A stretch of DNA of 34,093 nt from Atractiella rhizophila (taxonomy: Eukaryota). Where the stretch lies: the NCBI GenBank assembly GCA_021432655.1, contig MU271221.1, forward strand, positions 45,256 to 79,348, read 5' to 3'. Positions 1-21,132 of the stretch are shown here, one piece after another (within the stretch, counting starts at the first letter, position 1; each line of letters begins with the position of its first letter). The translations under genes were made by a program, and so were the position numbers. Below the pieces are notes generated by a model. That model ran no database searches and was not told the origin of the DNA. It saw nothing but the letters and a program-made list of their open reading frames with translations.

Positions 1-604
1 CTCCTCCTCCTCTTCCTCCTCCTCCTCCACCACCGCCAATGTCGACGCCTACTGCTATGCCGAGACCGATGGGCGATTCACGGTCCCAGTCGGCGCCCAT
101 CGCTCCTTCCCGCGGCACAAGATTGAGCATCTCCGAAGTGGTGCTGCTCATCCTCCTCCGCCTCTCCTCTCCCCCTCCATCCGCCCCTTCGCCGTGCGAC
201 TGCGACAGCGAATAGAAGGGAAACGCACCCGCCCCCTCTCCCGCAGCAGCCTCAGCCACCGCCCTCAACTTCCCCGCCGCACTCCGCTCCCTCCTCCCCT
301 CGCTCCCATCCCTCCCCGCATCCCGTCCCTCTCTCCCACTCCTCCCGCTCCCGCTCCCTCCCGAGCGCCCACCGCTTCCGCCGGACACACCCGCAAACAC
401 CCCAGGCGTAGACACGAGCTCAGACGTGCCCGTGAGCGGGAGGACGGTCCCTGGGGAGGGAAGGCCGGAGACGAGCGTGTGCAGCGGGTGCGCGTTGTTC
501 AGGCTCGGCGCGGAGGACGTGGGCAGAGTGATCGTCCCCGGTGCATTCCCCCGCAGAAGGCGAGGGGGACGGGCGGCGTCCGCGTACGATTTGCGACGCG
601 ACAT
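1..604 (-). CDS. RTC1: 5' part of the RTC1/WDR24-like gene, copy A (runs off the window start)
   Basis: ATG at 604 corresponds to ATG at 9789 (MSRRKSYADAARPPRLLRGNAPG...); nearly identical to copy B. Confidence 0.6.
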   Translation of the reverse strand, partial: MSRRKSYADAARPPRLLRGNAPGTITLPTSSAPSLNNAHPLHTLVSGLPSPGTVLPLTGTSELVSTPGVFAGVSGGSGGRSGGSGSGRSGREGRDAGRDGSEGRRERSAAGKLRAVAEAAAGEGAGAFPFYSLSQSHGEGADGGGEERRRRMSSTTSEMLNLVPREGAMGADWDRESPIGLGIAVGVDIGGGGGGGGRGGG

Positions 605-1104
605 TTAATATTTATTACGCATCGATCGATGCTTTTGCTGGGGGAAGTTGGCGGGAGAACGTGGGGATGTATGTCGGCGTACGCGTTCGGTACGCGTCGC
701 TGGGAAATCTGAAGAAAGCTTTTGTCAGAGCTTTTGTATTGTAAAAATAAGAGACCTGCGCGACAAAGGATGGATGGTGTCAATTTGATGAAGCCAGTTT
801 GTTTTTGCTTGCATCAGGTTCCGGAAGAGTGGAGGGTTGTTTTGCAAGCTGGGGATAGGTGGTGCTAGGAGAAATGAATTCTTTATGCTTGTATAATGGC
901 TTAAAGTCGGTAGTAAAAGCTGAGGTTTAATAGGCTGGTTTAAGGAAGGGAAAGAACATTTGCCACTGAGTGACACTGAAAGATCCATGTCTCGTTTGGT
1001 CAAAGACATGTCACAGCAATACCGCACATTTGATACATCAAGATTTGTCACTAGGAGTTCCTCAAAGAAGACAAAAGTAAATTGGTGTTCAGTCCCTACA
1101 CCAA

Positions 1105-2822
1105 CTACACAATCATATCCGTTGAACCTTCTGAAAGGGTAAACCCATAGTAACTCGGTGGATAAAGCTGAGACGCATGACGGAATGCAGATCTGATATC
1201 CTCTTCTTCCCACTCTCCAAAGAAAAGATGTAGGACAATCTGCCTCGGGGCATAACCTGTCAAGAAATCCAAGAATCCCTGGAAATTGAGGGAACAGAAA
1301 GAGAGGTCGAGGGAAAAAAGTTCGGAGAACTGGGAGAGTGATCCGATGAAGCTAAACAAGTCGTGCGGGACTTCATGACCGCCATCAAGGATTATTTTCG
1401 TCATGTCTAGTAGTGCTACAGGCTGCAAGCTTTCCGAAAACACCATGTCTGTCAGATCGAGGTGTTTGAACCATGAAGTTGGACTCAAACTGACAATGAG
1501 CTCGTCCATGGGCTGATAGCTTGATGGGAATCTGATGAGGAGGCAACAGTAGATGGACAAATAGGATAGCTTTGGACCAGAGAAGATAGGATGGATAAAA
1601 TGCGGCACGTAGATGTGCTCCAGCGACACCTCAGAAAGATTGACAGGTGTTGGCAGTTGAACATCAGTTTCTTCCATCAAAGCCAAGCTCGCAGGCAAGA
1701 CGTCAATCTGATGCCAGCTTAATAAATGGATCTTGCATAATTTTGTCCATGAGCAAGTCGTTTTAAGGAAGTTGTGCAAAGACTGTTGTGACCAACCTAA
1801 AAGAGTCAACGATTGTATGGAGCTCAGGGTTGCTAGGGCAATCAGGCCATTGCCCTCGTCGAACAATTTTGAGGAAGAAAAGCAAGAAAGTGAGACGACG
1901 GTGATTGCTTGTTGGAAGTCAATGGCTAAATCGACAAGATTCCTAACATCCACCCGTAAAGAGTCCATGAGATGGCAGTGCAAATTGGTCCAGAATCTTC
2001 TTGCCTTAGGATAAGACACCAGCTTTCGATACTTGATGAAACCCGAAGAAGGCTCGGGATCCAGGATCCGCATGTGATCCCACCAAAGTTTACAAACAGT
2101 TGAGCAGATTTTATGTGTATCGTGGTCATCCAGCACAAGCTGCTCGAAAATAAGTGATAATATTTCTACGGGTAGAGCAGCGATCGGCGACTCTGTACCG
2201 GAAGGGACAGTAGTAAGTTGAAGATGTGAAAATTGGACGCCACGGCGAATCACGAGGACGCCACTACGTTTCGCACAGACGCCACTACGTTTCACAAAGG
2301 GAACTTTGGGCAAGGCGACTGCTACTGTCGCTGTGTGCGCTTCTGAGCCGAATGGTAACTCAACTGTGACTGGCTTGACAACGTCATATTGATATGTGTC
2401 TTCCAATGTCATAGTAGCATAATCATCCAACAGCAAAGAGCAGTCAAAAGGATCCAGATAGATGTGGACTGCGTCCGAAAGATAGCGATGACGGTTTGGT
2501 AGAAAACGAATCGGACATTTTCTCGTAAGACGGCCGGTCCAATCCCAAGGCAAGAAGTGTATAAAGATGCTTCGTACGAGTGGGAGGGCGTCCACAAATG
2601 ATTGGGTCCAGCTCAGGTGTAACGTGTACGGATCGTCAAGTGTGCCGTAGCCTTCAGATATCAACATGATTGGTGTTCGCATTTCGCTACGTGATACAAG
2701 GTGCCTGTGCATAAACAAAACATCAGTGCATCACTCTTACGCCTCACGAAAGCATTCAAACTGAACTGTTACTTGATCGGCGGTCGAATTGCCGTAGACG
2801 AACGTTCACCGGCACCGTTCAT
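1105..2822 (-). CDS. F-box-like plus LRR/RNI-like protein, copy A; exons 2822-2773 and 2704-1105
   Basis: F-box motif SPIAALPVEILSLIFEQLV...ICSTVCKLWWDHM, followed by LxxLxL repeats (IQSLTL, LCKIHL, LSEVSL, LSYLSI, FKHLDL, LFSLDL). A 68-nt intron GTAACA..CTGAT..CACAG (2772-2705) joins MNGAGERSSTAIRPPIK in frame and is conserved in copy B. Confidence 0.85.
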
Positions 2823-3659
2823 CGATTATGGTCCAATATCATCGTTCTAATGTTCAATAGTCTTCATTATTCATTAATATTCATTGGTCATCGTTGAAGC
2901 AACTTTGAAGCTGAAGCTAAGCATCGCCCCCGTCAAGATGAGATGGTCCTCGCAAGATTACGATATTGCGATGAAGGTAGCCGCAGTGGATAATATGCAC
3001 TCGTTCAATAAGAGCAGGAGATTTCAAAGCCTACTCAGAAATATCTATCTCGATCCATGAGAACTACTCACCATTTGGTTAGTATACATACACGCTATCT
3101 ATTCTCTCACAGGCAATCCACTAAGGTTGCAAAGGTTTGAAGAAGGAAATAACCTATGTCATCCTTCGGTGCCGAGGCGTAGACGGTCAAATTCGCGAAG
3201 TCCTATGCATCTGATGATCGCTAGCTTTTACAAATTTCGACTTTTCGCAGTAGCTGAAATGAGTGACATTTGGCATAAATTGCAGTACAATGGGAGCGTT
3301 TAATTTCACCGATTTCATCTTCCCTCACAATTGCCGCTGTTAAGATGGATAATACGACGCAAATATGTACATTGAACCAGCGCCAACTGCCAAATGTCAT
3401 GGAGAAGCGTAGATAGTTTTCAACTCCTCGCCGACTTTCCAACGGTTTCTTCTGGTCGACTACTAAGGATTCTTGACATCTAACATCAAGTCTTATTTTA
3501 CTCAGGTCAGACTCAAAGGAACACTCATGGGACCCTTGTAGTCTATTCTCCTCAATGGCTCCTCCTGGGACTCTGAGTCCAAATACTCGCTCTCGTTGAA
3601 TGTCGAATGAACAGCTCCACAGCACGATCGACAACTACATCTTCTGCCTTCTTCCTGCT

Positions 3660-3719
3660 CAACTCCCACACTCAAAAGCGCCAACATCCCTATCCGAGAT
3701 CACAATCTCGAACCTCTCT
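3660..3719 (-). CDS. 3' tip of the XRCC2-like gene, copy A (cut by the gap)
   Basis: Matches about 13052-13111, encoding ...RFEIVISDRDVGAFECGS*. Confidence 0.7.
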
Positions 3720-3744
3720 NNNNNNNNNNNNNNNNNNNNNNNNN
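3720..3744. other. Assembly gap (25 N)
   Basis: Run of n at the junction between duplicate copy A and the ABC transporter gene. Confidence 1.
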
Positions 3745-3793
3745 ACGTCGTGTTTGCCATCCCGTTTGTTCATCTCTGACTACGTTATGACAG

Positions 3794-4935
3794 GTGCCGG
3801 AAAGTCATCAATCATGATGGCTTTTGTTCAGAATTGTGGAGCTTAGTTCTGGCAAAATCAGTGTGGATGACGTAGACATTAGCAAAATAGGTCTTTCGGA
3901 GTTGCGAGAGAAGATATCCATCATACCCCAGGAGGCCCTTCTGTTCAACGGCACGATCCGTTCAAACCTCGACCCTTTCAACGTTTACGACGATGCACGA
4001 CTCAACGATGCCCTGAAGCGAGCGTGGTTGATCGACGCTCCCTCCGATGCCTCGCCTTCGAAGTCCCGTCGACGATCTACGGAAAAGCTACCGACGGACG
4101 AAGATGGGATTGAAGCAGAGACACCCACAGCTGCCGCAAGCAAAAACAAATTTCACCTTGATTTTGTTGTCGAGGATGAGGGCTTGAATTTGAGTGTCGG
4201 CGAACGTAGTTTGGTGTCTTTGGCTCGAGCTCTTGTAAAGAACTCTCAGGTACGACTTCTTTTCCATCAGATACCCGTCGATGAACATGATCATTCCTAC
4301 TCAGATCATCGTCTTGGATGAAGGTGCGTAAATCACCAAGCTAGCTATTTATCTTGACCATTTCCCTTTAGCTACTGCTGCAGTAGTATGTCACTTCTTG
4401 CCTCTCTCGGTCTGCGCTAATTTCTGGATTCACTTAGGACTATGCAACGGTGGGTTGGTTCAAGGAATTCGGAAGCCTGCTCACAATGAGACCCAGGACT
4501 TTCGCATACAAACCACGATTCGCACGGAATTCTCTCATGCCACTCTCCTCTGCATTGGTAAACTCCTTGTTGATACAACGAGTTTGTTCTGAAATATGTC
4601 TCAGCCCATCGTCTTCGAACAATTCTCTCTTACGATCGGTGAGTCTTAATTTTGTCTCAATTTTCCTTTCAGCTTATTCCTGTCTGCAGGATTCTTGTCA
4701 TGGTGAGCTTCGTCTTCACTTCCTGTCACGTCTTATTGACTGCATCGTAGGACAAAGGTGAAGTCGCTGAATTCGACAGTCCAGAAAACCTCTTTAGGAA
4801 GGAGGATGGCATCTTCCGGCAAGTCACTCATTGCTTCTGACTTGTATGGAATCTTAACGCAGCCACAGGTCGATGTGTGACAAATCTCAGCTCACACTGG
4901 ATGATATACTCAAAGCTTCAAGCTATTATGAATAG
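3794..4935 (+). CDS. ABCC/MRP-family ABC transporter (Yor1/Ycf1-like), C-terminal NBD2, multi-exon, 5' part missing
   Basis: Walker A GAGKSS, Q-loop IIPQEALLFNGTIRSNLDP, signature NLSVGERSLVSLARAL, Walker B and D-loop IIVLDEATAAVD (assembled across micro-exons), H-loop IAHRLRTILSYDRILVM; stop TAG at 4933-4935. One apparent extra T at 3822-3825. Confidence 0.93.
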
Positions 4936-5081
4936 AGTAAAACGATAACCTAGCAACGATTCACATATAGATGTACATGAGTATCAATGCAACTGCGTCG
5001 AAATACTACAAGTGGAATAAAGTTGACCTTCAACAATAACTACCATTGTACCAAAGCAAGCAACACAGCACAGTATTTAAA

Positions 5082-8000
5082 TTAACCAACGTTTAATTCT
5101 GACCGATACACAATTTGAAGTGAAGCTGTGGACAGTGAACAAGGGGAATGCAAGCAATGGGGTGAAGGACACTGAGACATCTCATCGACAAAGTTGTCGA
5201 ATGGGCCGAGCAGAGTATTTGCGCAAAGTGTATGAAGGGCATGTCCACACTCATCACATTTCACAGCAGGATCTTTAACGCTCTTAAAGCTGCTCAATTG
5301 ATTAGTTTAGCCTTGTTTGGGTTTGAGGACAGAAGTGCTGACCAAATGACGCAGTCAAAAGGCGGCTTGCAGAATTGACAAGGACCTTGATCCACGTTCC
5401 GCTTCCCACAGCCCGAGCATAACAGCTCCGCACGAAGCTGACGGATGGTATTAGCAGAATTACCGAAGGAGTGAACAGACTTACGCGGTACGATAGCTTG
5501 ATGGTTTCCACAGGGCAGCTTGAACGCACCATCAACGCTTCAGAATGAAGGCCGTAGCTTTGGAGTACCTCTAGAGAAGTGTTACGATCGTTATATAGTC
5601 AGGTAGATAATCACTAGACATACCAAGGTACGAGACAGTAAGGTGCTTGACCCACATCATATCTATCTTTGCCCATCCTCTCACCCCTCTTGATAAAGCG
5701 TACACACCTGCCACAGCATGACAAAGTCCGATTGGTGCGTCATCATCTACGAAAGCTTGCAAATTTGTTGTTTGACACTGGCGATGATTTGTTCGTCTAG
5801 GTAGGCAAAAGCGTCCTGGACGTAGCTTAGACTACTTTTCCTGCCTGGTGGCTTGATACGTGCGAAAGGGAGAGGAGTAGGAGTATCCAGGGCTGGGCTT
5901 TCGGACCAATCAAAAGCCTTTGGTTTTACCTTGTGGCGTCCTCGTCTTGGTAGAAGCCTGGCGTGCGAAAGTTCTCCTCCTCACTAATCCAGGTCGACGC
6001 AGTTCCCCCGTCGAATCGTTATCGTCCGCATCTGAGCTATTCTCCTCCCTAACCTCCATGAACCTACCGCTACTCCTACCCTTTGACTTCGTCCCCTTGA
6101 CAGTTGTACGATACGACGACAGACTCCTACTTCTGCTCTCCCCACTGCCTCTTTTTCGCATACGGGCACTCCTCGATCGCTCCTCATACTCATCCTCCTC
6201 TGTCTCCTCATCCTGCGTTCGTAACGGAAAAATTGCGGAGGTGATGCGTCGGCTGCTGAAAGTGAGAGACGCTCTGGAAGAGACTCTGGACGAGCTTCGG
6301 GAGCGCTTATTGGGAGAGGTGAGTGGAGACATAGCAAGTGCGGCATGATCCCGCATGAGAGGCGAAGGGAATATTTCGACGGACGACTTTCGTGGGGCTT
6401 GTGACGGGAGTGAATCTGAAGAGGCCGTGTCTTCCTCAAACTGTGGTTCGAAGTATTGATCTGCCGAACGTTCATCTCTGGGAGTTGGAGGCAGAGGAAT
6501 GATCTTAGTTCTCTCCGAAGACGGTTGAGAAATTGGGTTGCCCCATCTTGAAGTCCGCGAGTAGTCTATTGAGCTGAGAGACGGATGTCTCGCGTGCGAG
6601 AGACCTGTTGATCGACGCCTCGACGTCTCTCCATTGCTCACCAATCCCAAAGCCGCTCCTCTTTCCTCCTTAGATCTGCTATCGTCCAACTTCTCCATTT
6701 TCCTCAATTCCTCATCCCACACGTTCTCCTCTCCAAACCATTCTCTCAAAAACATCCAAAACTGAACCGCCTCCATCCTCCCCGCCATCTTCGCCACCTC
6801 CAAATTCCTAGTACAGGTATCGATGAAGGAGAATGTCCCGTCAAAAGAATAGTTCTTAGCCAGAGAGTTGAACACCTCCCTCTCCCCATCGAGATTGGTG
6901 ACTGCACATCCAATTTGTTCGGGAACGTCGACAAAGAACTTTGGCCTTCGCCCAGTAACCTTCGAGGCGGTCGATCTTTTTTTTTGGGTGAGCAAGATGA
7001 GTTTGTAAATCAAAGGTAAGGGACGCACGGCTCCTCTTTCGTTGCCTTCTTCCCCCTCTCCTCATCCACCACCTCCGCCTTTGCAAACACGTACTCATCA
7101 CCATTCGCATTCAGGGCTGCTGTCACCCTCTGCACCTCATCCGCACAATACGTTCCTTCATTGATAAGGTCGTGTTGAACCAAACAACTCTCGCTCCTGC
7201 TCGTCGTCCAAATGGTATCCTGATCCGCCCAAAGAAGCGCTGAAGCCTGAGAACTGCTGCCAGCCGAAGAGTACAGGGAGTACTTTGGAATCGAAGAGTT
7301 GGATATGTCCCATACGTCGACGATGGGCGATTGGAAGGAAAGAGAGGAGGAGGTCTCGGTGAAGATTGAGGATATACCTATCGAAGCGATCTCGCGAACA
7401 TGTGAGGGACGGAAGGAGAGGCGGCGGACGGGATGGGTGGTTTTGAGCGTCTGCAAGGGTTTAGGTCTATCGAAAAGGGTAGCGTTCCATATCTGTCGCA
7501 AGATGAACAATTAACCCTGCTCTCCTAGTCCGACCCCTAGAAAATGGACTGAAAACGAACCTTGATCTTCCTATCCTGACCTCCAGAGGCGACCCAATCG
7601 ACCCACGACTTTGTCTCCTCATCGTACCCATGCGTCCAATCGACACACAACCCGCTCCCCAGATGAGCGATGGAGCTATAATTCATCCCCGGCTTCCTCA
7701 AATCCCACCTCACCAAGCTTCCGCTATCATGGACGGACGCTATCGCGTACACTTCTCCAGGCACAGGCGACAGGGCGAGGTCGCGCACCGGGTCGGAGAG
7801 CGAGTTGAGGATCATACGTGACGGTCGACCTTCGCGGATGTCCTGTCGACAGCAAAATTAGCAGGTGGGTCATGGGTAGTGGATATGCCGCACCCATAGC
7901 TTTAGGTATCCATCTTGGCTGCCAGAGATTAACCAGTGGCCTTGTTCCCCTCCGAATACTACCTTGTTGATCGCTTTCGTGTGTTCGAATTTCACCTGGT

Positions 8001-9789
8001 CTGCAGTAACCTCAAAGTTAGTAGTAACCTCCTTGGTTGAAGAAGAAAGACAGACAGAGCACTACGCCAGATGGTTGCAGTTGCCAAACAACGATCGCAC
8101 CGTTTGTACAGGCCATCGCAAGGTCCTCACTCGAATCTATCACACCCACGGTCATCATGAATCCTATTGAGCTTGGAATAAAGCGCAAGGAAAACCATTC
8201 TAATTGAATGGGAGGAATCGAAGAATAGAAAGATGGAAGAGCACTCACGATTGAAGCCCCAATCGAGTCCTGTAGCGACATACGCTTTTCCGACTTTCTC
8301 TGCGTTTCCCCCACCATCTGAAACGGTGCCTCTAACATCCCACTCCTCCTTCACTCTGTACTGCTGCTTCTCCTCGCCCAACCCAAACCCTCCCAATCCT
8401 TCGGGGAGGGAGAAGGCGACCGAATCTTCTTGTCTTCGAAGGAGGATGGACCGAGACGCCAGGAACGAGAGATGGGCGGAGAGGGAGGAGGTGGCGCGGG
8501 ATCTTTAGCGTGTTTGGATTGGGAGCGGGTTGGAGGATTGGATGGAGACGGAGGGATTATTCGGAGGATCTTTAGGGCTGTATATCACCACACCATGCAC
8601 AAAAATTGTCAGTCAGCTTGGGCTTGAGCTCGAAAGTGAGTCCATTGTATAGATATTGAAAGACATACCATTCTTGCCTACCACGCCCACGAGCTCGTCA
8701 TCTTTCCTCGACCTCTTCAAACCCACTAATCCCCCACCGTCGCTCGAATGCAGGGAGTTCCAAACCCATTCGGGTCTTCTTGTACCACATAAGCGAACCC
8801 CGACTCTTGAACCTCCTAATCTCATCATGACGCATCCGTCTCTCCCAAGCCGACAACTCCTCCTCCAACCACCTCGCCCTGCCCGCCGCTCCTCCCTCCA
8901 AACTACTCCCAGTCGCGCTCCCAAACCCGAACCCGAGCCCCATTCCGACCCCGTCCCGTCCGCGCACCCCACGGGAGGAAGAAGAGAGGATGGGTTGGGA
9001 CGCCCAGCTACCTGATGGACCGGAGGGGCCCGAGGACGAGAATCTGCCTCCGCTTCCTTGGGTTTGGGCCATTCGATGCAGGTACGATCCGGCGATGGAC
9101 CCTGAGCCGGAGCCAAGGTGGGAGAGGGAAGCGTCGTCGTGTGTACCGGTGTAGCTCGTGGAGAGAGTGGAGAAATCGGAATCCCGTCTTCCCACCACCC
9201 CTCCCCCTCCACCACCACCGCCAATGTCGACGCCCACTGCTATGCCGAGACCGACGGGCGATTCACGGTCCCAGTCGGCGCCCATCGCTCCTTCCCGCGG
9301 CACAAGATTGAGCATCTCCGAAGTGGTGCTGCTCATCCTCCTCCGCCTCTCCTCTCCCCCTCCATCCGCCCCTTCGCCGTGCGACTGCGACAGCGAATAG
9401 AAGGGAAACGCACCCGCCCCCTCTCCCGCAGCAGCCTCAGCCACCGCCCTCAACTTCCCCGCCGCACTCCGCTCCCTCCTCCCCTCGCTCCCATCCCTCC
9501 CCGCATCCCGTCCCTCTCTCCCACTCCTCCCGCTCCCGCTCCCTCCCGAGCGCCCACCGCTTCCGCCGGACACACCCGCAAACACCCCAGGCGTAGACAC
9601 GAGCTCAGACGTGCCCGTGAGCGGGAGGACGGTCCCTGGGGAGGGAAGGCCGGAGACGAGCGTGTGCAGCGGGTGCGCGTTGTTCAGGCTAGGCGCGGAG
9701 GACGTGGGGAGAGTGATCGTCCCCGGTGCATTCCCGCGCAGAAGGCGTGGGGCACGGGCTGCGTCCGCGTACGATTTGCGACGCGACAT
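5082..9789 (-). CDS. RTC1: RTC1/SEA2/WDR24-like SEACAT/GATOR2 subunit (WD40 propeller, low-complexity middle, C-terminal zinc finger/RING), multi-exon
   Basis: WD repeats (ELVGVVGKNALKILRI, ATGLDWGF, LAMACTNGAIVVWQL, SVHDSGSLVRWDLRKP, AHLGSGLCVDW, VASGGQDRKIKIW, HPVRRLSFRPSH); WDR24-like CTRNLEVAKMAGRMEAVQFW; C-terminal CGK..CQFC..CVIC..CDECGHALHTLC..CPSPHCLHSPC. Joining the 8698-9789 ORF as the N-terminus needs frame corrections near 8748 and 8390. Confidence 0.85.
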
Positions 9790-12700
9790 TTATTGTGCAT
9801 CGATCGCTTTGAGGACTTGGGGGAAGAACGCGGGGATGTATGTGGCGTACGTGTTCCGTACGCGTCACTGAGAAATCAGAAATCAGAAAGCTTTTCTCAG
9901 AGCTTTTGTATTGTAAAATAAGAGACTTGCACGACAAAGGATGGATGGTGTCAATTTGATGAAACCAGTTTGTTTTTGCTTGCATCAGGTTCCAGAAGAG
10001 TGGAGGGTTGTTTTAGCAAGCTAGGGATGGTGCTAGAACAAATGTATAACTCAAAGCGGTGGCGGAAAGCTCAGTTTATGTGGTTTAGGGAAGGAAAGAT
10101 CATTTGCCAGCGAGCGACACACTGAAAAATCCCTGTCTGGTTGTTCAAAATGATAGAACCTGGATGCCCCAATTGTTCTTGATGGTGGAAAGAAGACAGT
10201 CAGCAGTGCAAAGACTATATAGCGACAGACAAACCTGAATTCCCCAATCGTTCATGATGGTGGAAGACGATGGGGAATCCAGTGAAGGAGAACAAGCTTT
10301 ATATGAGTGGATGGCGTGTGGCCAAGAGCGGGAAGAATTAAGAACTAGAACACAGTGGAGAGAAAGACCTGGGAAAGCCCGTAATCCAACACAAGAGGCA
10401 TGTCACAGCATACCGTACATTTGCCGCTGTCACTGGGAGTTTCTCAGGGAGACAAAGCAAGGAATTGCGGTTCAGTCCGCAGGCCACGTAAACCCATCTC
10501 TTCGTCTCTTGGAGCTTCTAAAAGGATAAAGCTGGAGTAACCTGGTGGATAAAACTGAGACGCATGAAGGAATGCAGATCTAATTTCCTCTTCTTCCCAC
10601 TCTCCAAAGAAAAGCTCTATGGCAATCTGCCTCGGAGCATAACCTGTCAAGAAATCCAAGAATCCATGAAAATCTAGGGAACAGAAATAGAGGTTGAGGG
10701 AAGAAAGTTGGGAGAAGTTGAAACGGTTGAAACGTGGTCCAATGGAGCTGAACAAGTCGGGCGTTAAGATGTTGCTGTCTTCATGACCGCCATCAAGGAT
10801 TATTTTCGTCATGTCTAGCAGTGCTACAGGCTGCAAGCTTTTCGAAAACACCATGTCTGTCAGATCAAGGTGTTCGAACCATGAGTGTGGAGGCAAAATG
10901 ACGGCGAGCTCGTCTGTGGGCCGATAGCTTGATGGGAATCCGACAAGGAGGCAACTGTGGATGCGCAAAATGGATAACTTTGGACCAGAGAAGACGGGAT
11001 GGATAAAACGCGGCACGTAGATGTGCTGCAGCGACACCTCAGAAAGATTGACAGGTGTTGGCAGTTGAACATCAGTTTCTTCCATCAAAGCCAAGCTCGC
11101 AGGTAAGACGTTAATATGACGCCAGCCTACTAAATGGATCATGCATAGTTTTTTCCAAGAGCAAGTCGCTTTAAGGAAGTTGTGCAAAGACTCTTGTGAC
11201 CAACCTAGAAGAGTCAATGATTGTATTGAGCTTAGGGTTGCTAGACCCATCAGGCCGTTCCCGTCGTCGAATAAGTTTGAGGGAGAAAGGCAAGAAAGTG
11301 AGACGACAGTGATTGCTTGTTGGAAATCGATGGCTAAATCGATGAGATTCCTAACATTCACCCGTGGAGAGTCCTTGAAATTGCAGTGCAATTCGGTCCA
11401 GAATCTTCTTGTCTTAGGATAAGACACCAGCTTTCGATACTTGATGAAACCCGAAGAGGGCTCGGGATCCAGGATCCGCATGTGATCCCACCAAAGTTTA
11501 CAAACGGTTGAGCAGATTTTATGTGTATCGCGGTCACCCAGTACAAGCTGCTCGAAAATAAGCGATAATATTTCTGCTGGTAGAGCAGCAATCGGCGACT
11601 CTGTACCGGAAGGGACAGTAGTAAGTTGAAGATGTGAAAATTGGACGTCACGACGATTCACAAGGACGCCACTACGTTTCGCACGGACGCCATCACGTTT
11701 CGCAAAGGGAACTGTGGGCAAGGTGACTGTTACTGTTGCTGTGTGCGCTTCTGAGCCGAACGGTAACTCTACAGTGACTGGCTTGACAACTTCATATTGA
11801 TATGTGCCTTCCAATGTCATAGTAGCATAATCATCCAACAGCAAAGAGCAGTCAAAAGGATCAAGATAGATGTGGACCGCGTCCGAAAGATAGCGATGAC
11901 GGTTTGGTAGAAAGCGAATCGGATGTTTTCTCGTAAGACGGCCGGTCCAATCCCAAGGCAAGAAGTGTATAAAGATGTTTCGGACAAGTGGGAGGGCGTC
12001 TACAAATGATTGGGTCCAGCTCAGGCGTAACGTATAAGTATCGTCAGGTGCCCCGTCGCCTTCATATATCAACATGATTGGTGTTCGCATTTGGCTAAGT
12101 GATACAAAGTGCCTGAGCATAAACAGAACATCAGTGCATCAGTCCTTATACCCACGAAAGCATTCAAACTGAGTTGTTACTTGATGAGCGGTCGAATTGA
12201 TGGGGACGAACGTTCAACTGCATGGTTCATTGATTATTGTCATTGTGCCGATATTCAATAGTATTCAATATTCATTAATATTCATTGGTCATCGTTGAAG
12301 CAACTTTGAAGCTGAAGCTAAGCATCGCTCCCGTCAAGATGAGACGGTTTCTCGCAAGATTACGATATTGCGATGAAGATAGCCGCAGTGGATAATATGC
12401 ACTTGTTCAATAAGAGCGGGAGATTTCAAAGCCTACTCAGAAACATCTATCTCGATCCATGAGAACTACTCACCATTTGGTTAGTATACATACAAGCTAT
12501 CTATTCTCACACAGGCAATCCACTAAGTCGCCAAGGTTTGAAGAAGGAAATAACCTATGTCATCCTTCGGTGCCGAGGGGTAGATAGCGAAGTCCTATGC
12601 ATCTGATGATCGCTAGCTTTTACAAATTTCGACTTTTCGCTGTAGCTGAAATGAGTGACATTTGGCATAAATTGCAGCACAATGGGAGCGTTTAATTTCA

Positions 12701-13111
12701 CCGATTTCATCTTCCCTCACAATTGCCGCTGTTAAGATGGATAATACGACTCAAAAATGTACATTGAACCAGCGCCAACTGCCAAATGTCATGGAGAAGC
12801 GTAGATAGTTTTCAACTCCTCGCCGACTTTCCAACGGTTTCTTCTGGTCGACTACTAAGGATTCTGGACATCTAACATCAAGTCTTATTTTACTCAGGTC
12901 AGACTCAAAGGAACACTCATGAGACCCTTGTAGTCTATTCTCCTCAATGGCTCCTCCTGGGACTCTGAGTCCCAATACTCGCTCTCGTTGAATGTCGAAT
13001 GAACAGCTCCACAGCACGATCGACAACTACATCTTCTGCCTTCTTCCTGCTCAACTCCCACACTCAAAAGCGCCAACATCCCTATCCGAGATCACAATCT
13101 CGAACCTCTCT
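9186..13111 (+). repeat. Duplicated block, copy B, in an intact RTC1 - F-box/LRR - XRCC2 context
   Basis: See copy A. Net 207 nt longer than copy A, mostly from extra sequence at about 10150-10390. Confidence 0.97.
10444..12230 (-). CDS. F-box-like plus LRR/RNI-like protein, copy B; exons 12230-12181 and 12112-10444
   Basis: F-box SPIAALPAEILSLIFEQLV...ICSTVCKLWWDHM and LRR-like repeats. A 68-nt intron (12180-12113) joins MNHAVERSSPSIRPLIK in frame. Confidence 0.87.
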
Positions 13112-14049
13112 CGTCCAGGATTAACGCTGGCTCTGAAGCAAGCCTCCAGCTGTTCGCCATCTCCCTCAACCTCAACTTTTGCTCTCCTCGTGATTGGGGA
13201 TGTCACGATCTGTGCAGTGAGGGCCCAGTGTGCCTCCGACATGGGCTGCACCATGTGTTGTGGGGTTGAGGTAGACGAGCCAAGGCGCGAAGGCAGCGTG
13301 GGGACAGCAGGGGAGCGATGGGAGGCCCAGGACGTGACGAGGGTGATCCACCCAGTGCGTGAGCGAACCTCGCGGAGAGCTGAAACAAGATCTGAGTTCA
13401 TCGTTGCGGTGGTTGAGGGAAGGATGTGTAAGGCTGAGAGTCCATCAACGATGAGGAAAGCGATTTCTTTTCCCCGCGCCGCCGCTCTTAAATAGGAAGG
13501 GAGGGAACGAACGGTCGCCGTTAATTGCGGGAGGGAGGCGGGGCGAAAGACGTGAAGATGCTCCAGCGCAACTTGAACCATAGCGTCCATATTCCTCTCA
13601 TCACTCAACTCCAACCCGTCTAGGTTCGCGCCTTTGAGGTAATCACGGAGCCGGCCCTCGAAGTAGAAACGCAACAACTCCGCCAATCTCTTCACTCTGA
13701 ATTTCCCATCGCAATCCAGCGCCACCACTCCCTTTCCTCTTCCCCCAAGCGGAATCTGCACTGTCTCTCCTTTCTCTCCTGTTGCCGCGAGATCCGGGGA
13801 ATGTGGGATGGGTCGAATTCTCGCTTCCCACGATGACGGAACGAGTGTGGTGAGCGCCAAGAAGTAGAGGGTGTGCGTCTTGGCTGTGCAAGGAGCACCA
13901 ACGATCTCGATGATGTCTCCTCTCTGAAGGGAGTGGGAAGAGGGAGAGGAAACGGTCGAACCGGCCCGGTTAGTGAGCAGGATGTCGTCCAATGGTCCAA
14001 ACCAGGTTGGGCCAGGTGGACGGACGTGGTAGAAGAGATCAGAGAGGAA
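13051..14049 (-). CDS. XRCC2: XRCC2-like Rad51 paralog (RecA fold); true start exon lies upstream and is unresolved
   Basis: LQRGDIIEIVGAPCTAKTHTLY (Walker A-like), VVALDCDGKFRVKRL, LEHLHVFRPASLPQL, Walker B FLIVDGLSA. The frame is open back to the acceptor CTGAT..TATCAG at 14050 (FLSDLFYHVRPPGPTWFGPLDD). Confidence 0.8.
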   Translation of the reverse strand, partial: FLSDLFYHVRPPGPTWFGPLDDILLTNRAGSTVSSPSSHSLQRGDIIEIVGAPCTAKTHTLYFLALTTLVPSSWEARIRPIPHSPDLAATGEKGETVQIPLGGRGKGVVALDCDGKFRVKRLAELLRFYFEGRLRDYLKGANLDGLELSDERNMDAMVQVALEHLHVFRPASLPQLTATVRSLPSYLRAAARGKEIAFLIVDGLSALHILPSTTATMNSDLVSALREVRSRTGWITLVTSWASHRSPAVPTLPSRLGSSTSTPQHMVQPMSEAHWALTAQIVTSPITRRAKVEVEGDGEQLEACFRASVNPGRERFEIVISDRDVGAFECGS

Positions 14050-15122
14050 CTGATAATGTCGGTGATCAGTTGCATGTCAAACACTGAGCTGTAGAAATTT
14101 ATGAGAGACTTGAGGATGGTTCACTTTGTGATCGAGGAATGAACGACTGGATTCGTTATAAGACTCCAATAAATCATAGACCTTGCTAAGGTACGTCATA
14201 GAACAAAGGCGAGGTTAATGTTTGACACGGAGGGACAAGTTATTCTGAAGCATCCCTGTGCGAGTTTAATCGTCTATATTGCCGTTGATCTCAAAGCTTC
14301 ACAAGTGTTGTCTTTCTTTGTTTAGTGAACGTCTCTGTTGCATCTCAGAACCCACAGCACTGTAGGTTACTGTAATAAGCATCGAATATGGAGAGGTGCG
14401 CTCAACAGTTCACACTATTTGAATCTGCTTCAATAGCTTCAACGATATCATGTGCAATTGACGGTGTACAAGGCCTGATGGCTCTGCTTCCTCTAGAGTG
14501 TTTGGGTTGACGACAACCAGGCCGAACTCTGCGTTAATACCACGAATAAGAAATGAAACGACCCGCACAACTGCAAGAAAAGAGCGCATTTCGATGAAGA
14601 GCTAAAGGTTGTGTAAGTATGTGGTACGGAGCGCACCAGAACATACATTCATGTCACGTCAACTGAGAGAAAGCGCCTCTCCCCTTCTCCCCTTCAGAAG
14701 GCAAATCAGCAATAGTGAAACGTGAGAATGTGTGAAGCTGAAGAGGCTGCTAGTCATTTATACTCTTTATTCCAGTTATGCACACTGCAAACAACCCCTC
14801 AGGCTGAAAAACATCGTTCCTTTCCATTTACGCTTGAAAAACGTACCAAAGTCCCAGTGATCGTTTTCGTTCCCTCCATCAGGTTCTGTGCCTCTGTTAC
14901 AGTGCTCTCACCCTCCATTCATATAATCGTATTCTCAATTCGTGGTACACCTTTCTTATGTTCCTCTCATAATACGTCCAAACTAGCCGTTTCCTTTTCC
15001 TCGTTGGCGGGAGCACTTCACTCACGTAGTTTCAGGACTAAAATCACGTGCCCAGAAATCACCCTTCTTTTGCGTCTTTTCTCTTTCACGAGTCTCAAAC
15101 TGTTCAACTTGCACGCTCAAGA

Positions 15123-18100
15123 ATGTCAGTGAATCGCCTGCCTCCCACCAACTCCACCCGCGCACGTTCAGGGTCGACCTCCCGTCCGCGGCCCAGCAAC
15201 CTCTCAGCAGCCTCTATTCCACCTCCCGCGGTCCCACCCACGACGAACGGCAGCCTCGCAGATGGCTCCTCCTCCACCGCCGACTTTCTCGCTTCCGACG
15301 AAGCTCTCTTGAAGGCGTATAGGCTCTCTAGTCTCGAACCAGCGAAGTGGGAAGATGTCCAGTTCGGAGGAGCTGATGACATGGCGTCTGGTGGAACAGG
15401 AGCTGGGGGAGAAAACACTCGTGATCCGTTGGGGTTGACTAAGAGTTCCATTCTAGCGTTTGTCTTGGTTTCCATCACAGAGAAGGATACTGACTATCCG
15501 GTATTTGTAGAAACATTCCAAAGGAGACGGATAAGAAGCAGATCTTGAGCAGCAGCAAGAACTTTGACCCAAAGGTCTTCCTCTCTACAGTTCATCCCAA
15601 TGCATCGTTTGCGGATTTGGCTAGAGGGAGGGAGAGATTACGGGAAGTGTGCGTATCTTCTTCGTTCACTCTTAGTTCGCTCGCAAGTGAACTAACTGCT
15701 ACTATGCGTTTGGGGTTCGGATCGGTCACAGGTTAGATTCACGAACGGAAGCCTTGCAGACCCTCGTAGAGAAAGAATGGGACCGTTTCGTCTCCGTGAA
15801 GGGCGCAACACAGAGTATGTCTGCATTCTACCTTCTTCTTCCGTCCTCCTAATGCCTAAATGGACTCACCGTTGTTGTTGAATAGATGTGATCGAAGAAA
15901 TGAACGACCTCTCCTCCGGCCCATTGGCACCCGGACAAGACGCAGGTGTACGAAATATCAGAGAATCTTTATCCAGTTCGTTTAACACTTCCCTACGTCA
16001 TCAGAGAGTTCCATCCAAAGTAACAATGATGCATGCTCTAGATGCAAACGAAAAGGCGTCTTTAGCGTTCCAGCCCATTCTCGATGCACGCTTGAAGGCA
16101 GAGAGGTTGCGAAGCACCTTAGGAGTGTTTGAGCGGAGCAAGTTCTTCTTCAACTTGCCTGGGGTCATACGAGAGGGGGTCGATTCTGTATGTACTCGCA
16201 TCCCCTTTCGACGAGGGTGGGTTATTGCTAGAAACTGACGGAGGACACAGGGACGATACGATACTGCTCTCACCGCGTATAAGAAAGGGAGATACCTCAT
16301 GGAAAGCCGACCGGGGATGTTGATCCCTTTTGGGGCTGGCGGTGTTGGAGGTGGGGGAGCGGAGGGGAGGAAACGAGTATTTGACAAGGTTAGTGATCTT
16401 TCATCCTCTTTAGTCGGTGAAGGGAAACTCAATCGTCGATGTGACTAGGTCTGGAGTCAGGTGGAAGGAATTGTGGGAGATCTGAAGAAGGACCTTGGAG
16501 CGAGGTTAAGGGATCCGCGTTGTCCTATCGAGGAAGTAGAACGGACGATTGAGTGCGTCTTCCCTCGTTAGCTTCTTTCTCTTTCACTAAAATTCAAATT
16601 GTTGTCAGGATCCTCCTTGAGCTCGATCCCAACGATCAACCAGTATGGATATTCTTGGACACTCAGAATGAGTGGATACTCTCGTTGCTGAAGAAGACAG
16701 AGGAGGTGGGGAGGGCGAAGTTCGCTGGTGCGTTTCGTTTCTATCGCTCCAGAGCGTGATGCGTCTGAACTGTGTTGTTACAACATATACAGAGACGATC
16801 GATAAAGATGGAAGGGAGATGGACGAAGCCTTCATCCTTGCAGACCTGCAAGGAGTTCTCGAAGGTAGGGAGGAAGATATGGATCGAATACTTGGTTCGT
16901 TCCATCCCACTTTCTGACACAAAGAAGAGGAGCTGAAGTGTTGGTGGGACACAGAGACGGGGAGGGGCTCAAGTGTTTGGAAAGCTGCTTACGCATTTAC
17001 CAAGGACTTGAGCGACGTAATGCTCCACGCTCTTCCTACTTTTCTGAAAGTAGCGAGAGGTTACACGGAAGGGAAGTATCAAAAAGTCAGTCCCTTTCTT
17101 TGATTTCGATTCCTGAGTATTAAAAGATGTGGTATTATATGACAGAAAAACCTTTCGTCAACGTCAACGCCGAAACGCTCAGCCACACAATGTAAAAGCA
17201 TGACCTACGGCATCATCACTCTCTACGTGACCCTCATTTCCAATTTCTTCTCCTTCTCCTCCTCGTCCTCCACTGCGCCACCAGATAGCCTTGCGCTTCC
17301 GTACATCCCCTCCAACTCAAGCGCTCTGATGACCGCACATTGGACAAACAAAATCCTCCGAGTCCTCTCCCATATCGTTTCAGAAAGCAACGGTGGGGAT
17401 TTAGTCGGTGAACCCACCCAGCTCTTGAAAGAACTCCTGGAGAGTGCGCGGAGTGGATTCCTCGCTGTTATCGCGAGCTCATGGACGCGTGGTACGTCTT
17501 CAAGCCTATTTCTCGACCGTAACCCATCTGACCTGCGCTGGCGTGCGTGGCGTTGTGCCTGGGATAGATTCGGGTCTCCTAACGCGTATGGAAGATTGGG
17601 AGCCAGATGCAGATGAAGGCGGGCGGAGCACGACCAATGTGAAGCTTCTGGTGCGGTTTGAAGAGGAAGAGCTGAGGTTTTGTGGGAGCATCTTTGGGAA
17701 GGTGGAGAAGGAAGGATTTTTGGGTCGAGCGGAAAGGGAGAGGAGGGAGGAAGTGGTTCGTCCTAGATTCCGCTACATCACCATGTTACAAAGGCTTAGC
17801 GAGTGTTAGCCCATACCCCCAGCCCTCGTCGCTAAGAGCCAGAAAGCGTTTCTTGACAGTTGGTACAATATCTTAGAGGGCATTGGACAGTTAGAAGGCA
17901 CCGAAGAAGTCGACTTGGTACTTTGCACTTTCACCTCTCGAGAAAAGCTAATGCGAAGCATGATAGGACAAACGGTTATTGTTAAGCATGTGCAACCTCG
18001 AAGAATTCCAAGAGAAAGTTATACCCAAGCTCGCAGAAAAGTTCCACGAGATCTTCAAACATGAGATCGACCAAGATCTCGACGTACGCCTTTCATTCTT

Positions 18101-18763
18101 CTGTTGATATCTGTGCTGAACATGTTGACACAGATTCTCTTGAACGTCGTAAAGGAGCTAAGCGATAGACTTTTCAACGATTACGTGGAGAGTAAACGCG
18201 CTCGAATAGAAAAGATCATTACAGTTGGTGTATTGGAAGATGGTATCGATTGGCTCAACACGCCGAAACCGACAGGTTTGCCTTTCGCATATTCTCAATT
18301 GCACCAAATCAGGCTGATCGAATATGGCCAAATAGAGGTCCATCCCTTCATCTACTCCTCTCTCCTTTCCTTAGTCCTTATTCATGCTCAAGTCTCTGGT
18401 GTTACCCCCACATTGGTCAATCGCGTCCTTGAGCGTCTCGTATACGAACTGGCCACCATCACGCTCACTTGTTTCTCAAAAGTTGAAGCTTTCGGCATGG
18501 GCGGAATGCTACAAGCGACTCTCGAAATCGAATTCATTCATCAAACCCTACCCATGTTCATGACTCCAAAAGCAGACGAGACGCTCCAAAAGGTTTATGC
18601 TACCATCAGCGCGAAGAAGACGAGACAGAAGGACTCCGGAGCGGAACTGCAGAAAGACCTGGAAGGCCTCAAAAAGGTCTTGAGCGAGAGTAGGAAGAAT
18701 ACGATGCTCCAGTTTTTGGCTTTCAAGAAACCGAAAGGCGATAGGGAGGGGAACAAGGGATAG
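15123..18763 (+). CDS. SEC5: Exocyst complex component Sec5/EXOC2, multi-exon
   Basis: SSKNFDPKVFLSTVHPNASFADLARGRERLR; LVEKEWDRFVSVK; KAERLRSTLGVFERSKFFFNLPG; ALTAYKKGRYL; EAFGMGGMLQATLEIEFIHQTL. The exon junctions checked join in frame through GT-AG introns. Confidence 0.93.
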
Positions 18764-18971
18764 TGCTTCATGCATCTATGAAGGAGGGTTCTCGAGCTGG
18801 CTCGATCATTGAATATGTGGTTGTTGCATGTAACTACAGGAGTATACCCGATGTAATGATGTATTCCAGCACTTCCGCAAACTGTTACCTCGACAGATTG
18901 TCAGTCGCACCTTGGTAGGCTTGAATGAAACGAAGGCCGTGTGAGGGATCGCTTACAAACCAAACACTCGA

Positions 18972-19188
18972 CTACTTCCCGAAAGGGATCTCCGTCCAAC
19001 CCGCAGGACATTTGCAGCTAGAACAGAGCGCTCAGCAACGGAAAAATCTGAAAGCGCATAGCTTACTTGAATTCCTGTTCTACCGTTCCGTTCGTGCAAA
19101 GCACTATGGAAAGGCAAGTTCTCTCTTCCTTGATAGGTGCTGCCATCGCCAGAGCGGCGAAGAGACTAGCAAAAAAGATAAGCCTCAT
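18972..19188 (-). CDS. Small secreted cysteine-containing peptide, 55 aa; exons 19188-19067 and 19017-18972
   Basis: MRLIFFASLFAALAMAAPIKEERTCLSIVLCTNGTVEQEFNCKCPAGWTEIPFGK*. Classical signal peptide ending AMA-AP, propeptide ending EER, four Cys. The 49-nt intron GTAAGC..GCTGAG..TTCTAG restores the frame. Confidence 0.75.
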
Positions 19189-19198
19189 GTTTAGAAGT

Positions 19199-19455
19199 TA
19201 GACCAAGGTTTCTCGATGTGAAGGGGTCGCTTCGAGTCGTTTCGAGCCAGCTCAATGGCAGTCTTTTTATCGGCTCCTGCCACAAACGCATGGCGACAAC
19301 ATCCCCGTCAACCCACACAGTGTCGCTGTGACGGTGTGGCGAAATCTTGAGTCCAAGACTCCAACGAATCCACCGACAGCACAGAAGACTGACTCCCCTC
19401 AGAACGACCCACTTGCGCGCCGAATGGAGGGCGAAAGCAAAATAGTTTTGGCCTA
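19199..19455 (-). ncRNA. Putative structured RNA element (unassigned ncRNA or structured UTR)
   Basis: Nested complementary helices found by eye: UAGGCCAA/UUGGUCUA, GGGUCGUUCUGAG/CUCGAAGCGACCC, CAGUCUU/AAGACUG, UGUCGGU/GCCGAUA, plus three distal hairpins. Wobble positions are G-U on the minus strand and A-C on the plus strand. Confidence 0.45.
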
Positions 19456-19727
19456 TTACGCTGTTAAATAACTGCTACTAGGAAGCAGACCAAATCTGCA
19501 CTCTGGCATATCAAAGTTGCAACTTGAGCATCGCCAATTCTTAGCTGGTACTTCATCGAAATTTCTAATAATCATCAAACAATGCCCGCCGACTGGGGAG
19601 ATTACTTGTAACGATGAATTGGAATGCACATCGATGAATTTCCCAGAATCAAACCCTCGAGCAATTTCTTTGCACCATAACCTAAAGGCGCCTCAGTTTG
19701 GTTCAGGGATGAGAGGAACGAGCACAC

Positions 19728-21132
19728 CTAACTCAGGATAAGAGCCGTAGGTCTCTGATCGCCTACAGAGCGCTGCCGGCCATATTTGAGAAAGAATTGA
19801 TTAAGAAGAAAGTGCTTACGATTCCTACACCTCGTCCTCAGGGTCCAATGATAGATATCTAGCAGGTCCAGCTTCCAAGCGGGGTAACGAACAGCCATAG
19901 CATCGTCCCAAAAAGTATCGTCGCTCCCCGGAACCCGAATCTTGTACGTTAGAGCTTCCTTCCCCTCCCGAATGCATGCTTTGAGAAGCTGATTCAACAA
20001 CAAGTTGCCGTCTGTGTGATCCAAAGAGCGGCGATTCAAGACCTCTCGGAGCATCTCCTGAAAGTCAGGCTCTTTCCATATCCGTGGCTGGTTCTCAGGC
20101 TGACTCGCATAATGTAACCTGGGAGACGAGATAGCAGTACGCTGAATGCGGAGAGCGAAGGAAGCTGCGTCGCCATCGATAACGAGAGAGGACGACATTC
20201 TTCCTTTCAATGGACGTGTGATGGAAGGGCAAGAAAGACTGCATGCAATCTTTCCCTCATCCCCCAGCTTCCAGCTGTCGTAGACAATCGTATATCCACG
20301 GTCCTGGTACTTCTCCATGCACTTCTTTTCACGATCTTGGAGCGGATGTTGCAGAGATTCTCGCAGCTCGTAGCCACTATGCTTGAAGGTGAGCACGGGA
20401 TAGAGTACTCGAACGTAATCATGGGCAATGTAGTTCATCTGCATCCTGCCGTCAGAATCACTGGCGTGATTACATATATAAGTTAAGAGAGACGACGAAC
20501 AACGACTGTAGAATGAAAGCAAGTGATGCAATGTCTCGGATCTTTATGGTGGCATTCGACGACGTCCACTTTGACCTTCTCGCCTGTTGATTCCCTCGTC
20601 TTGGTCATGCCGCTCACATTCTTAGGGCATGTGATATAATTCGGGTTGTTGTCGTAAGGATGTGGACGCGTCCAGTCGTTCGACGGTTGGTACCCTTCCT
20701 CGTCGACGAGATACCGGACTAGAGCATCGGAGTGACCGACTGGCACATAAATATCGAGGTCTTTAGCGGACCAAGATTCATCCCCTGAGATGAAGGACAG
20801 TGCCGTTGACCTTGAAATGTTCTTACATAAGCGACAGAAGGAAGGAAAATGTGTCCGGTAACTAACCCGGAAATGATGGCTCCTGTCACTCGCATGGCCT
20901 CCCTGAATTCCTCAACGTCGTCCATATACCTGCCGACATACGTCTTGAACTTTGTTTCGAGGTAATCATCGATCTTTTGTCTCCAAAAACCTTTATTCAG
21001 TTTTCGTAGCTTCCCCAACGCCCAGAGGGGTAGAATGCCGAGGATGTAGAAATCAAATATCTCAATAGGAAGGTTGGAGAAGAGACCAGCGTTAGTGGCC
21101 GTAACCTCTGGGTCGACTTGTTGAGACGACAT
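19728..21132 (-). CDS. F-box-like plus Pol-beta-superfamily nucleotidyltransferase-like protein, 428 aa; exons 21132-20867, 20810-20501, 20438-19728
   Basis: Introns GTTAGT..TTCAAG (56 nt) and GTTCGT..CTGAC..TGCAG (62 nt) give FREAMRVTGAIISGSTALSFISGDESWSAKDLDIYVP...KVKVDVVEC...CFHSTVVMNYIAHD..LYPVLTF..EKYQDRGY. The N-terminal LFSNLPIEIFDFYILGILPLWALGKLRKLNK is F-box-like. Confidence 0.85.

Follow-up and report, generated by a model that had tools for sequence, protein, structure and literature searches.

F-box proteins of the FBXL type, such as FBXL17, FBXL2, FBXL3 and Skp2, and the plant proteins TIR1, COI1 and MAX2 carry an F-box directly before a curved solenoid of leucine-rich repeats (LRR). 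The same order is predicted for the products of two similar genes, here called A and B, that lie on contig MU271221.1 of the Atractiella rhizophila assembly GCA_021432655.1, in a stretch of 34,093 nucleotides that corresponds to positions 45,256 to 79,348 of the forward strand and is termed the window; all coordinates below count from its first base. Cysteine-containing LxxLxLxxC units are also common to A/B and the FBXL-type adaptors, and it is with these adaptors that A/B have their best structural match, over model residues 165-525, and their best profile match, at the F-box, but sequence identity is 10-16%, and the adaptors are without the beta-rich domain of 165 residues that stands ahead of the F-box in A and B. 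An initial annotation of the window, made from the letters alone, had described two F-box/LRR gene copies with diversified LRR strands. Both sequences are indeed present, but they are probably alleles that were laid in tandem by the assembler, and not paralogues: with a probability of about 0.6 to 0.65, A and B are two haplotypes of one gene that were assembled as a false heterotype duplication. The finding is best regarded as a probable false duplication, behind which stands an F-box/LRR gene with two strongly different forms and a lineage-specific family of its own.

False heterotype duplications are marked, according to the accessible parts of Ko et al. (2022, PMC9516828), by a gap between the copies, by half depth and by haplotype-specific words. 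Like the cases treated there, A and B are diverged forms that adjoin on one scaffold with a gap between them and diverge more strongly than the remaining genome, and their contigs may have about half depth. The criteria of that source, in the same parts, used raw read depth, k-mer spectra and linked reads, whereas the case of A and B rests on per-contig depths. As to the divergence pattern, hetA-D of Aspergillus fumigatus have ancient balanced alleles, the divergence of which reaches several hundred bases past the coding region (excerpts of PMC11138114). Two deeply diverged forms in a narrow, gene-centred block are common to these het alleles and A/B, a likeness that counts only if A and B are alleles; unlike the het alleles, A and B are known from two haplotypes only and have no death-related domain. 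Fast-evolving F-box families have been described in wild isolates of C. elegans (excerpts of PMC8120010), and lineage-specific expansion and a within-species diversity that is concentrated outside the F-box are shared by A/B and such families of nematodes and plants. These families, however, mostly have FTH, FBA or kelch-type substrate domains and come with population data, whereas A and B are one presumed allele pair of a basidiomycete. In plant LRR resistance genes under diversifying selection, finally, the ratio of non-synonymous to synonymous divergence (dN/dS) is above 1 at the exposed positions of the xxLxLxx units; A and B, as two sequences, reach 1.4 at these x positions, with a p of 0.18 against the silent rate of the gene.

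The two genes are embedded in repeated blocks, which have the following features:

1..3719, no strand: block A, with the 5' part of the left neighbour, F-box/LRR gene A and the start of the right neighbour
3720..3744: scaffold gap of 25 N that ends block A, with mid-gene ABC-transporter sequence behind it
9186..13111, no strand: block B, collinear with A in the same orientation, running unbroken into unique sequence on both sides
A 506..2870, corresponding to B 9691..12270: diverged block of about 2.4 kb, with the gene, 0.6 kb of its 3' side and 0.15-0.2 kb of its 5' side
10139..10396: insertion of about 250 bases that is present only in B, just 3' of the stop codon of gene B

In a global alignment, the blocks are direct copies with close flanks, as initially annotated, with 0 mismatches in 435 positions at A 71-505 and 21 in 839 (2.5%) at A 2871-3719, the latter being composed of 4.4% divergence in A 2871-3200 and 1.3% in A 3201-3719. 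Between these flanks, the divergence is 6% in A 506-604, 17% plus 308 gap columns in the 3' non-coding region of the gene (A 605-1104), 10.4% in the coding sequence and 21% in the 140 bases 5' of the open reading frame (ORF; A 2731-2870). The diverged block, at 10-21% versus 0-2.5% in the flanks, has margins at which divergence decays within a few hundred bases on each side, and its silent and non-coding sites are 4-8 times more diverged than the flanks, the silent divergence being about 7 times the flank value. The claim that divergence is specific to the LRR strands did not hold, since the non-coding sides with their 17-21% exceed the coding sequence (10.4%) and silent divergence (dS) is similar throughout the gene (N-terminal domain 0.137, F-box 0.154, LRR domain 0.199). 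The whole block of 2.4 kb, its non-coding parts included, has a deeper history than its flanks, for which selection on the LRR surface cannot account. A likeness to deep balanced alleles had also been pointed out initially, and the sharp peak of 2.4 kb has that shape, but balancing selection itself is plausible only. Repeat-induced point mutation of a duplicate was considered as well and is ruled out, as the substitution spectrum, which comprises 177 transitions and 125 transversions, is symmetric and lacks a one-sided C-to-T excess (C>T 39, T>C 42, G>A 42, A>G 54).

The genes and the parts of their predicted products are located as follows:

1105..2682, minus strand: gene A, 525 codons plus stop, starting with MRTPIML; frame open up to 2730
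10444..12090, minus strand: gene B, 548 codons plus stop; frame open up to 12138
A 2188..2682 and B 11596..12090, minus strand: N-terminal beta-rich domain, residues 1-165, family-specific
A 2005..2187 and B 11413..11595, minus strand: F-box, residues 166-226, indicated by a Pfam match below the cut-off, by the family profile and by the fold
1108..2004, minus strand: predicted LRR solenoid of A, residues 227-525, 11 strand-helix units
10447..11412, minus strand: predicted LRR solenoid of B, with a tail that is 23 residues longer; this is the region 10444-11400 of the initial annotation

The start of gene A was placed from the N-termini of family members in the alignment. The frames are open over 541 (A) and 564 (B) codons despite about 10% DNA divergence, all indels within the ORF are multiples of three, and in the protein alignment 445 of 541 positions (82%) are the same in both, with a C-terminal tail of B that differs from that of A and is longer. 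The six peptide pairs that had been quoted from the two copies are all present as written. For gene B, a public protein search returned a deposited model, the hypothetical protein BT69DRAFT_1387107 of A. rhizophila with 450 amino acids, which starts at an internal methionine and in which a predicted intron swaps 20 in-frame residues for an out-of-frame stretch. The uninterrupted ORF suits the family alignment better than this model, the intron being without support in the family.

That A and B are probably alleles is concluded from the gap, from per-contig depths of about half and from a widespread heterozygosity. The right end of block A coincides to the base with the start of the 25-N gap, so that an assembly gap between the copies is present, and directly behind this gap the sequence sets in within an ABC-transporter gene (3745-4330, plus strand; Pfam ABC_tran, E 4.5e-10). 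For this gene, run X3 contains a spliced transcript contig with 4200 nt, of which 2868 nt lie upstream of 3790, and as the corresponding upstream exon was not found in the window, the scaffold join must be at least incomplete. When longer proteins were sought for the ABC fragment, none of at least 294 amino acids was found for this gene, but only a 59% paralogue on another scaffold. The join at 3720-3744 is incomplete or wrong. The initial annotation did not mention that block A ends at this gap.

Depth and heterozygosity were assessed with run X1, a DNA run of A. rhizophila that holds 0.85 of the words of block A and the contigs of which were aligned to positions 3745-23700 of the window; the Logan depth used here is one mean per contig and is not a copy number or read depth. 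Merged contigs of the neighbourhood have depths of 282-354, whereas the contig that carries the letters of copy A at 9691, 9709 and 9748 has a per-contig mean of 176.4, and at 10543 and 10554 two contigs sum up to 368.1, with 218.7 for the B-like one and, by subtraction, 149.4 for the other. The sample is heterozygous, with haplotype-specific words: 163 of the 303 aligned pieces are less than 99% alike, and variants occur at about 750 places along 19,956 bases, of which the alignment of A on B can explain only about 312. Both letters are found in X1 also outside the repeat, at 7235-7247 (148.6 of 273), 8405, 9069, 9145 and 14558-14952, and the flank divergence of 2.5% is near the variant density of X1 outside the repeat. 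Of the 26 clusters of the gene family, four have moreover a second member on another scaffold, with identities of 98.9% (P0009/P0052), 93.6% (P0011/P0053), 98.9% (P0018/P0054) and 93.1% (P0024/P0055); two scaffolds of paired members are nearly equal in size (41,263 and 41,489 bases), and the second members are often on small scaffolds. Judged by their sequences, these pairs look like retained haplotig pairs, as is expected if haplotigs remain in the assembly. The sequenced material would then carry two haplotypes, as a dikaryon or diploid, which at this locus would have been so different that the assembler kept both, and the scaffolder would have put block A into the nearby gap. A published statement on the ploidy of A. 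rhizophila was not found, and the genome data are acknowledged as unpublished in the accessible part of PMC13347111.

True paralogy of A and B is unlikely, and several points that weigh against two haplotypes of one gene are best considered together with it. If A and B were paralogues, a segment of at least 3.7 kb would have been duplicated within one chromosome at a distance of 5.4 kb, with flanks that are young or homogenized by gene conversion and a core that is much older or was replaced from a diverged source. Both blocks do lie on one scaffold in the same orientation, both ORFs are intact and constrained, and the family is expanded in A. rhizophila, with 26 clusters of relatives. The duplication would stop exactly at a gap that breaks another gene, which speaks against it, but contigs break at the borders of true repeats too, and a gap at the end of A is thus expected also under a real duplication. 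The left end of block A coincides with the start of the window; for the left neighbour gene a single model was found (P0051, 98% over 37% of the query), which sets no firm leftward limit to block A. Against paralogues, the depths of the A-like and B-like contigs are about half those of merged neighbours and add up to 368, the value of one locus, yet the summed depth of X1 over gene B is 456-674 and lies above the roughly 350 of the neighbours. This sum was rejected as a measure of copy number, since the repetitive B-only insertion and one or more contigs from a third paralogue contribute to it. The contig in question, with a depth of 349.6, matches gene B solely in short conserved islands between 10829 and 11970 (10829-10884, 11135-11232, 11416-11514 and from 11904), its letters before 10829 are similar, though not identical, to the LLDMTKIILDGG-coding stretch, and it represents a third and more distant paralogue, which did not emerge as a close relative in the protein searches. 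The B-only insertion contains a 34-nt motif twice at a spacing of 75 nt and a 12-nt hairpin, and it is a small dispersed repeat that is present elsewhere in the genome, since its summed depth in X1 is high (990) and several differently flanked contigs end there (2-3 contigs have loose ends there, at 10227, 10235 and 10286).

The origin of X1 has to be weighed as well, as this run departs from the window in some letters (the B-like contig has 7 differences in 507 letters) and still contains A-like and B-like contigs. It may be another culture or isolate, and two isolates that both have A and B would favour paralogy. Points against paralogues are in turn a flank divergence of 2.5% that is close to the variant density of X1 outside the repeat, silent and non-coding core sites at 4-8 times the flank divergence, for which a conversion of only the flanks gives no simple account, and the absence of any one-sided excess of C-to-T changes such as repeat-induced mutation would leave in a duplicate. 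Also at the protein level some observations do not favour two functional haplotypes: the Pfam F-box-like model scores only 19.3 bits in A and 18.1 bits in B, both under the cut-off of 24.3, copy A has a deletion of 4 residues in the best conserved motif of the family (GGHE----VPHDLF vs DGGHENSNLLPxDFF), and in copy B a T takes, within the conserved motif, the place of the P found in 18 of 25 relatives. The deletion in A and, in B, this T, the 250-base repeat behind the stop codon and the longer, different tail are what would be expected if one copy were decaying, either as a pseudogene or as a dying allele. This is very improbable, as both frames are open over their 541 and 564 codons at about 10% DNA divergence, dN/dS is significantly below 1, derived states are split between the copies (35 to 26), and the indels of the ORF are all multiples of three. 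The decaying pseudogene that the initial annotation had named as a finding that would speak against its own view is not indicated, both frames being intact at a dN/dS below 1.

Two haplotypes of one gene thus remain the preferred reading, and the gene itself belongs to a family of its own. When 1.84 billion representatives were scanned in full with HMMER, 26 relatives were obtained in addition to the model of copy B, 11 of them at E 1e-10 or better, and all 26 are A. rhizophila proteins on other scaffolds; 5 of the 26 pass the Pfam F-box cut-off. A scan of JGI metagenome contigs for relatives gave 118 pattern matches and 0 confirmed ones, and a word-based homologue search found nothing beyond the two copies. 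Judging from these searches, the F-box/LRR family is found only in A. rhizophila and appears to be expanded there. Its best conserved stretch is located near the C-terminus (LDGGHENSNLLPxDFF ... YC ... LFFGEWxEEE), and in the N-terminal domain an SWTxSF motif is kept across the family. In the Pfam scan of both copies no LRR model matched and the weak F-box-like match was the sole one, but the family profile matches the F-boxes of FBXL2 (E 2.2e-4) and FBXL17 (E 7.6e-4).

The predicted structure is in line with this. AlphaFold2 with the two copies only gave a mean predicted local distance difference test score (pLDDT) of 31.2 and was discarded, whereas with 28 family sequences a pLDDT of 75.3 and a predicted template modelling score of 0.71 were reached. 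In the latter model, F-box helices begin at residue 166 and strands and helices alternate from residue 230 on in 11 units, which is the architecture of a three-helix F-box followed by an LRR solenoid; the N-terminal domain has pLDDT values of 30-80, and no known fold could be assigned to its 165 residues from this model. The best PDB matches found with Foldseek are TIR1, COI1, FBXL3, FBXL17 and Skp2 (E 1.4e-4 to 4e-3) as well as MAX2, with the top 7 being F-box/LRR proteins bound to Skp1 or ASK1, or complexes thereof. VIA-align gave a Z of 16.5 to FBXL17 (6w66_B) over model residues 165-525, with 311 aligned residues at a root-mean-square deviation of 7.6, and a Z of 15.9 to FBXL2 over residues 165-518. 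As model, Foldseek, VIA-align and family profile agree, the initial assignment stands, and the gene is predicted to encode an F-box/LRR protein. The role as a substrate adaptor of an SCF ubiquitin ligase, which had been proposed too, is plausible from the modelled fold and its matches. The F-box would dock on Skp1, the concave face of the 11-unit LRR would hold the substrate, and the protein would serve as the substrate-choosing subunit of the ligase; by analogy with FBXL proteins, Skp1 binding and an SCF function can plausibly be expected.

For the analysis of selection, dN and dS were obtained by Nei-Gojobori counts between A and B, and as there are two sequences only, no site test is possible. 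The dN/dS of the whole ORF is 0.54 (dS 0.176, dN 0.096) and significantly below 1 (Fisher p 3e-4), with 0.40 in the N-terminal domain, 0.14 in the F-box and 0.63 in the LRR domain. The near-invariance that had been noted for the F-box is found in the protein, with 3 amino-acid changes in 61 codons, but not in the DNA, as the silent sites of the F-box are as diverged as the rest of the gene. The 11 LxxLxLxx registers of the LRR domain were fixed on the modelled strands by hand, after the model had been seen. At their x positions 2, 3, 5, 7 and 8 (55 codons), dN is 0.248 and dS 0.177, and the resulting dN/dS of 1.4 is not significantly above 1 when compared with the silent rate of the gene (p 0.18), while dN/dS is 0.33 at the scaffold positions 1, 4 and 6 (33 codons) and 0.49 in the remaining LRR domain (207 codons). 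In terms of amino acids, 22 of the 55 x positions differ (40%), as compared to 2 of the 33 hydrophobic scaffold positions and 44 of the 207 other LRR codons, which corresponds to an enrichment of replacements at x positions over other LRR codons with an odds ratio of 2.5 (p 0.008).

This enrichment depends on how strands are delimited. With bare DSSP strands (17 of 58 replacements vs 51 of 237) it is not significant (p 0.22), and with DSSP strands extended by -1/+3 residues, dN/dS is 2.1 (p 0.17) versus 0.37 in the rest of the domain, whereby the heterogeneity of non-synonymous to synonymous changes between strand windows and the rest is significant (p 0.002), which is partly due to few silent changes in the strands; the helices of the LRR domain have a dN/dS of 0.35. 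The initially described clustering of replacements on LRR strands is therefore borne out at the hand-set x positions and not on bare DSSP strands. With the family as outgroup, A keeps the commoner residue at 35 sites and B at 26, with 17 ties, and the mean frequency of the top residue in the family is 0.31 at differing columns versus 0.42 at identical ones. On these counts, purifying selection acts on the N-terminal domain, on the F-box and on the scaffold positions of the LRR, and the excess at the LRR surface, real but modest, would suit a surface on which changes are tolerated or mildly driven. Positive selection on the LRR surface is not demonstrated by the comparison of A and B, and the diversifying selection that the initial annotation had proposed is thus not supported, dN/dS being 0.54 for the entire gene, 0.63 for the LRR domain and 1.4 for the x positions (p 0.18).

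If A and B are alleles, they would be much older than the surrounding haplotype difference, because 18% protein divergence and a silent divergence of about 0.18 stand against 0-2.5% in the flanks. How such an age came about can be answered in more than one way. Tentatively, it is possible that the alleles became old without selection, by chance deep coalescence or by introgression, in a weakly constrained, fast-evolving and lineage-specific gene, in which case the strand-surface excess would reflect merely a weaker constraint at these positions. A dN/dS of 1.4 at x positions that does not differ from 1 (p 0.18) is what neutral surface positions give, the whole-gene dN/dS is 0.54, and the changes sit in the less conserved columns of the family (0.31 vs 0.42). 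The helices, however, are constrained (0.35) and the strand windows are not (2.1), with a significant difference in the ratio of non-synonymous to synonymous changes (p 0.002). Under a simple neutral coalescent, a silent divergence of about 7 times that of the flanks would have a chance near exp(-7) per locus, but a handful of such deep loci could be expected per genome, and coalescence or introgression yields the same picture when there are two sequences. The narrow, gene-centred peak that decays over a few hundred bases is again a point against neutrality, as it resembles balanced het alleles in the excerpts of PMC11138114, and so are A-like pieces in two more runs, X4 and X5, from other years and studies. 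These two runs are thin, with 11 and 2 aligned pieces, and the pieces are A-like in part, their counts of other letters being 9, 9, 13, 17 and 5, as compared to 10, 13, 18, 17 and 3 sites of difference between A and B.

The alternative within the preferred reading of two haplotypes is that balancing selection keeps both forms, for which the gene is a plausible, if doubtful, candidate. The targets of the two forms, or the strength with which these are bound, are probably not the same, as a different affinity or target range is expected when 40% of the exposed strand positions differ. From there one may go on to a gene for non-self or partner recognition, the two anciently balanced alleles of which, with their differing LRR surfaces, would send different targets to SCF-dependent degradation; such a target could be the other allele's product or that of an unlinked partner gene. 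This is a long shot, and a het-like or hybrid-incompatibility-like system made of F-box/LRR proteins would, if true, be of a kind not yet described in fungi. To our knowledge, no F-box protein is among the described het genes, and in a literature survey on fungal F-box proteins, balancing selection and allorecognition, none of the papers listed had an F-box in title or abstract. Pfam detected no HET, NLR, patatin, gasdermin or other death-related domains in either copy or in the 26 relatives. The gene is therefore a reasonable candidate for a balanced polymorphism and no more yet, and a recognition function is not proven by the divergence pattern.

In a practical sense, what a public fungal assembly presents as two tandem genes is probably an artefact that arose from heterozygosity, and if so, counts of gene-family expansion and paralogue dN/dS values from this assembly mislead. 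If A and B are alleles, forms of a gene exist that are several times older than the surrounding haplotype difference, and their changes concentrate on the face with which this ubiquitin-ligase adaptor is predicted to bind substrates, its family being seen only in this lineage. Such loci are natural candidates for genes of allorecognition or host interaction in basidiomycetes, where very few are known.

Some side observations concern the sequence runs and the window consensus. Run X3 is RNA-like, as it has spliced joints, and it covers neighbouring genes; over gene B its summed depth is 10.4, 0.48 and 0, and no conclusion on expression was drawn. X1 and X3 agree with each other and against the window at single-base indels or substitutions at 3822, 5763, 5961, 6977, 8405 and other positions, and at 5763 and 5961 also X4 agrees with them. 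The consensus of the window seems to hold errors or a haplotype mosaic, at about 0.5% as estimated from the word share of 0.85.

Apart from the repeated blocks, the window contains the following neighbours:

7010-8350, minus strand: beta-propeller gene
13051-14076, minus strand: weak AAA/RecA-like ORF
18065-18763, plus strand: exocyst Sec5 gene (E 8.5e-43)
19728-21180, minus strand: second, unrelated F-box-like gene with an LPIEIFDFYIL motif, 7 kb downstream

Pfam gave no match on two ORF pieces of the F-box-like gene at 19728-21180. The first three of these neighbours are ordinary housekeeping genes, and the locus of A and B does not belong to an F-box cluster.

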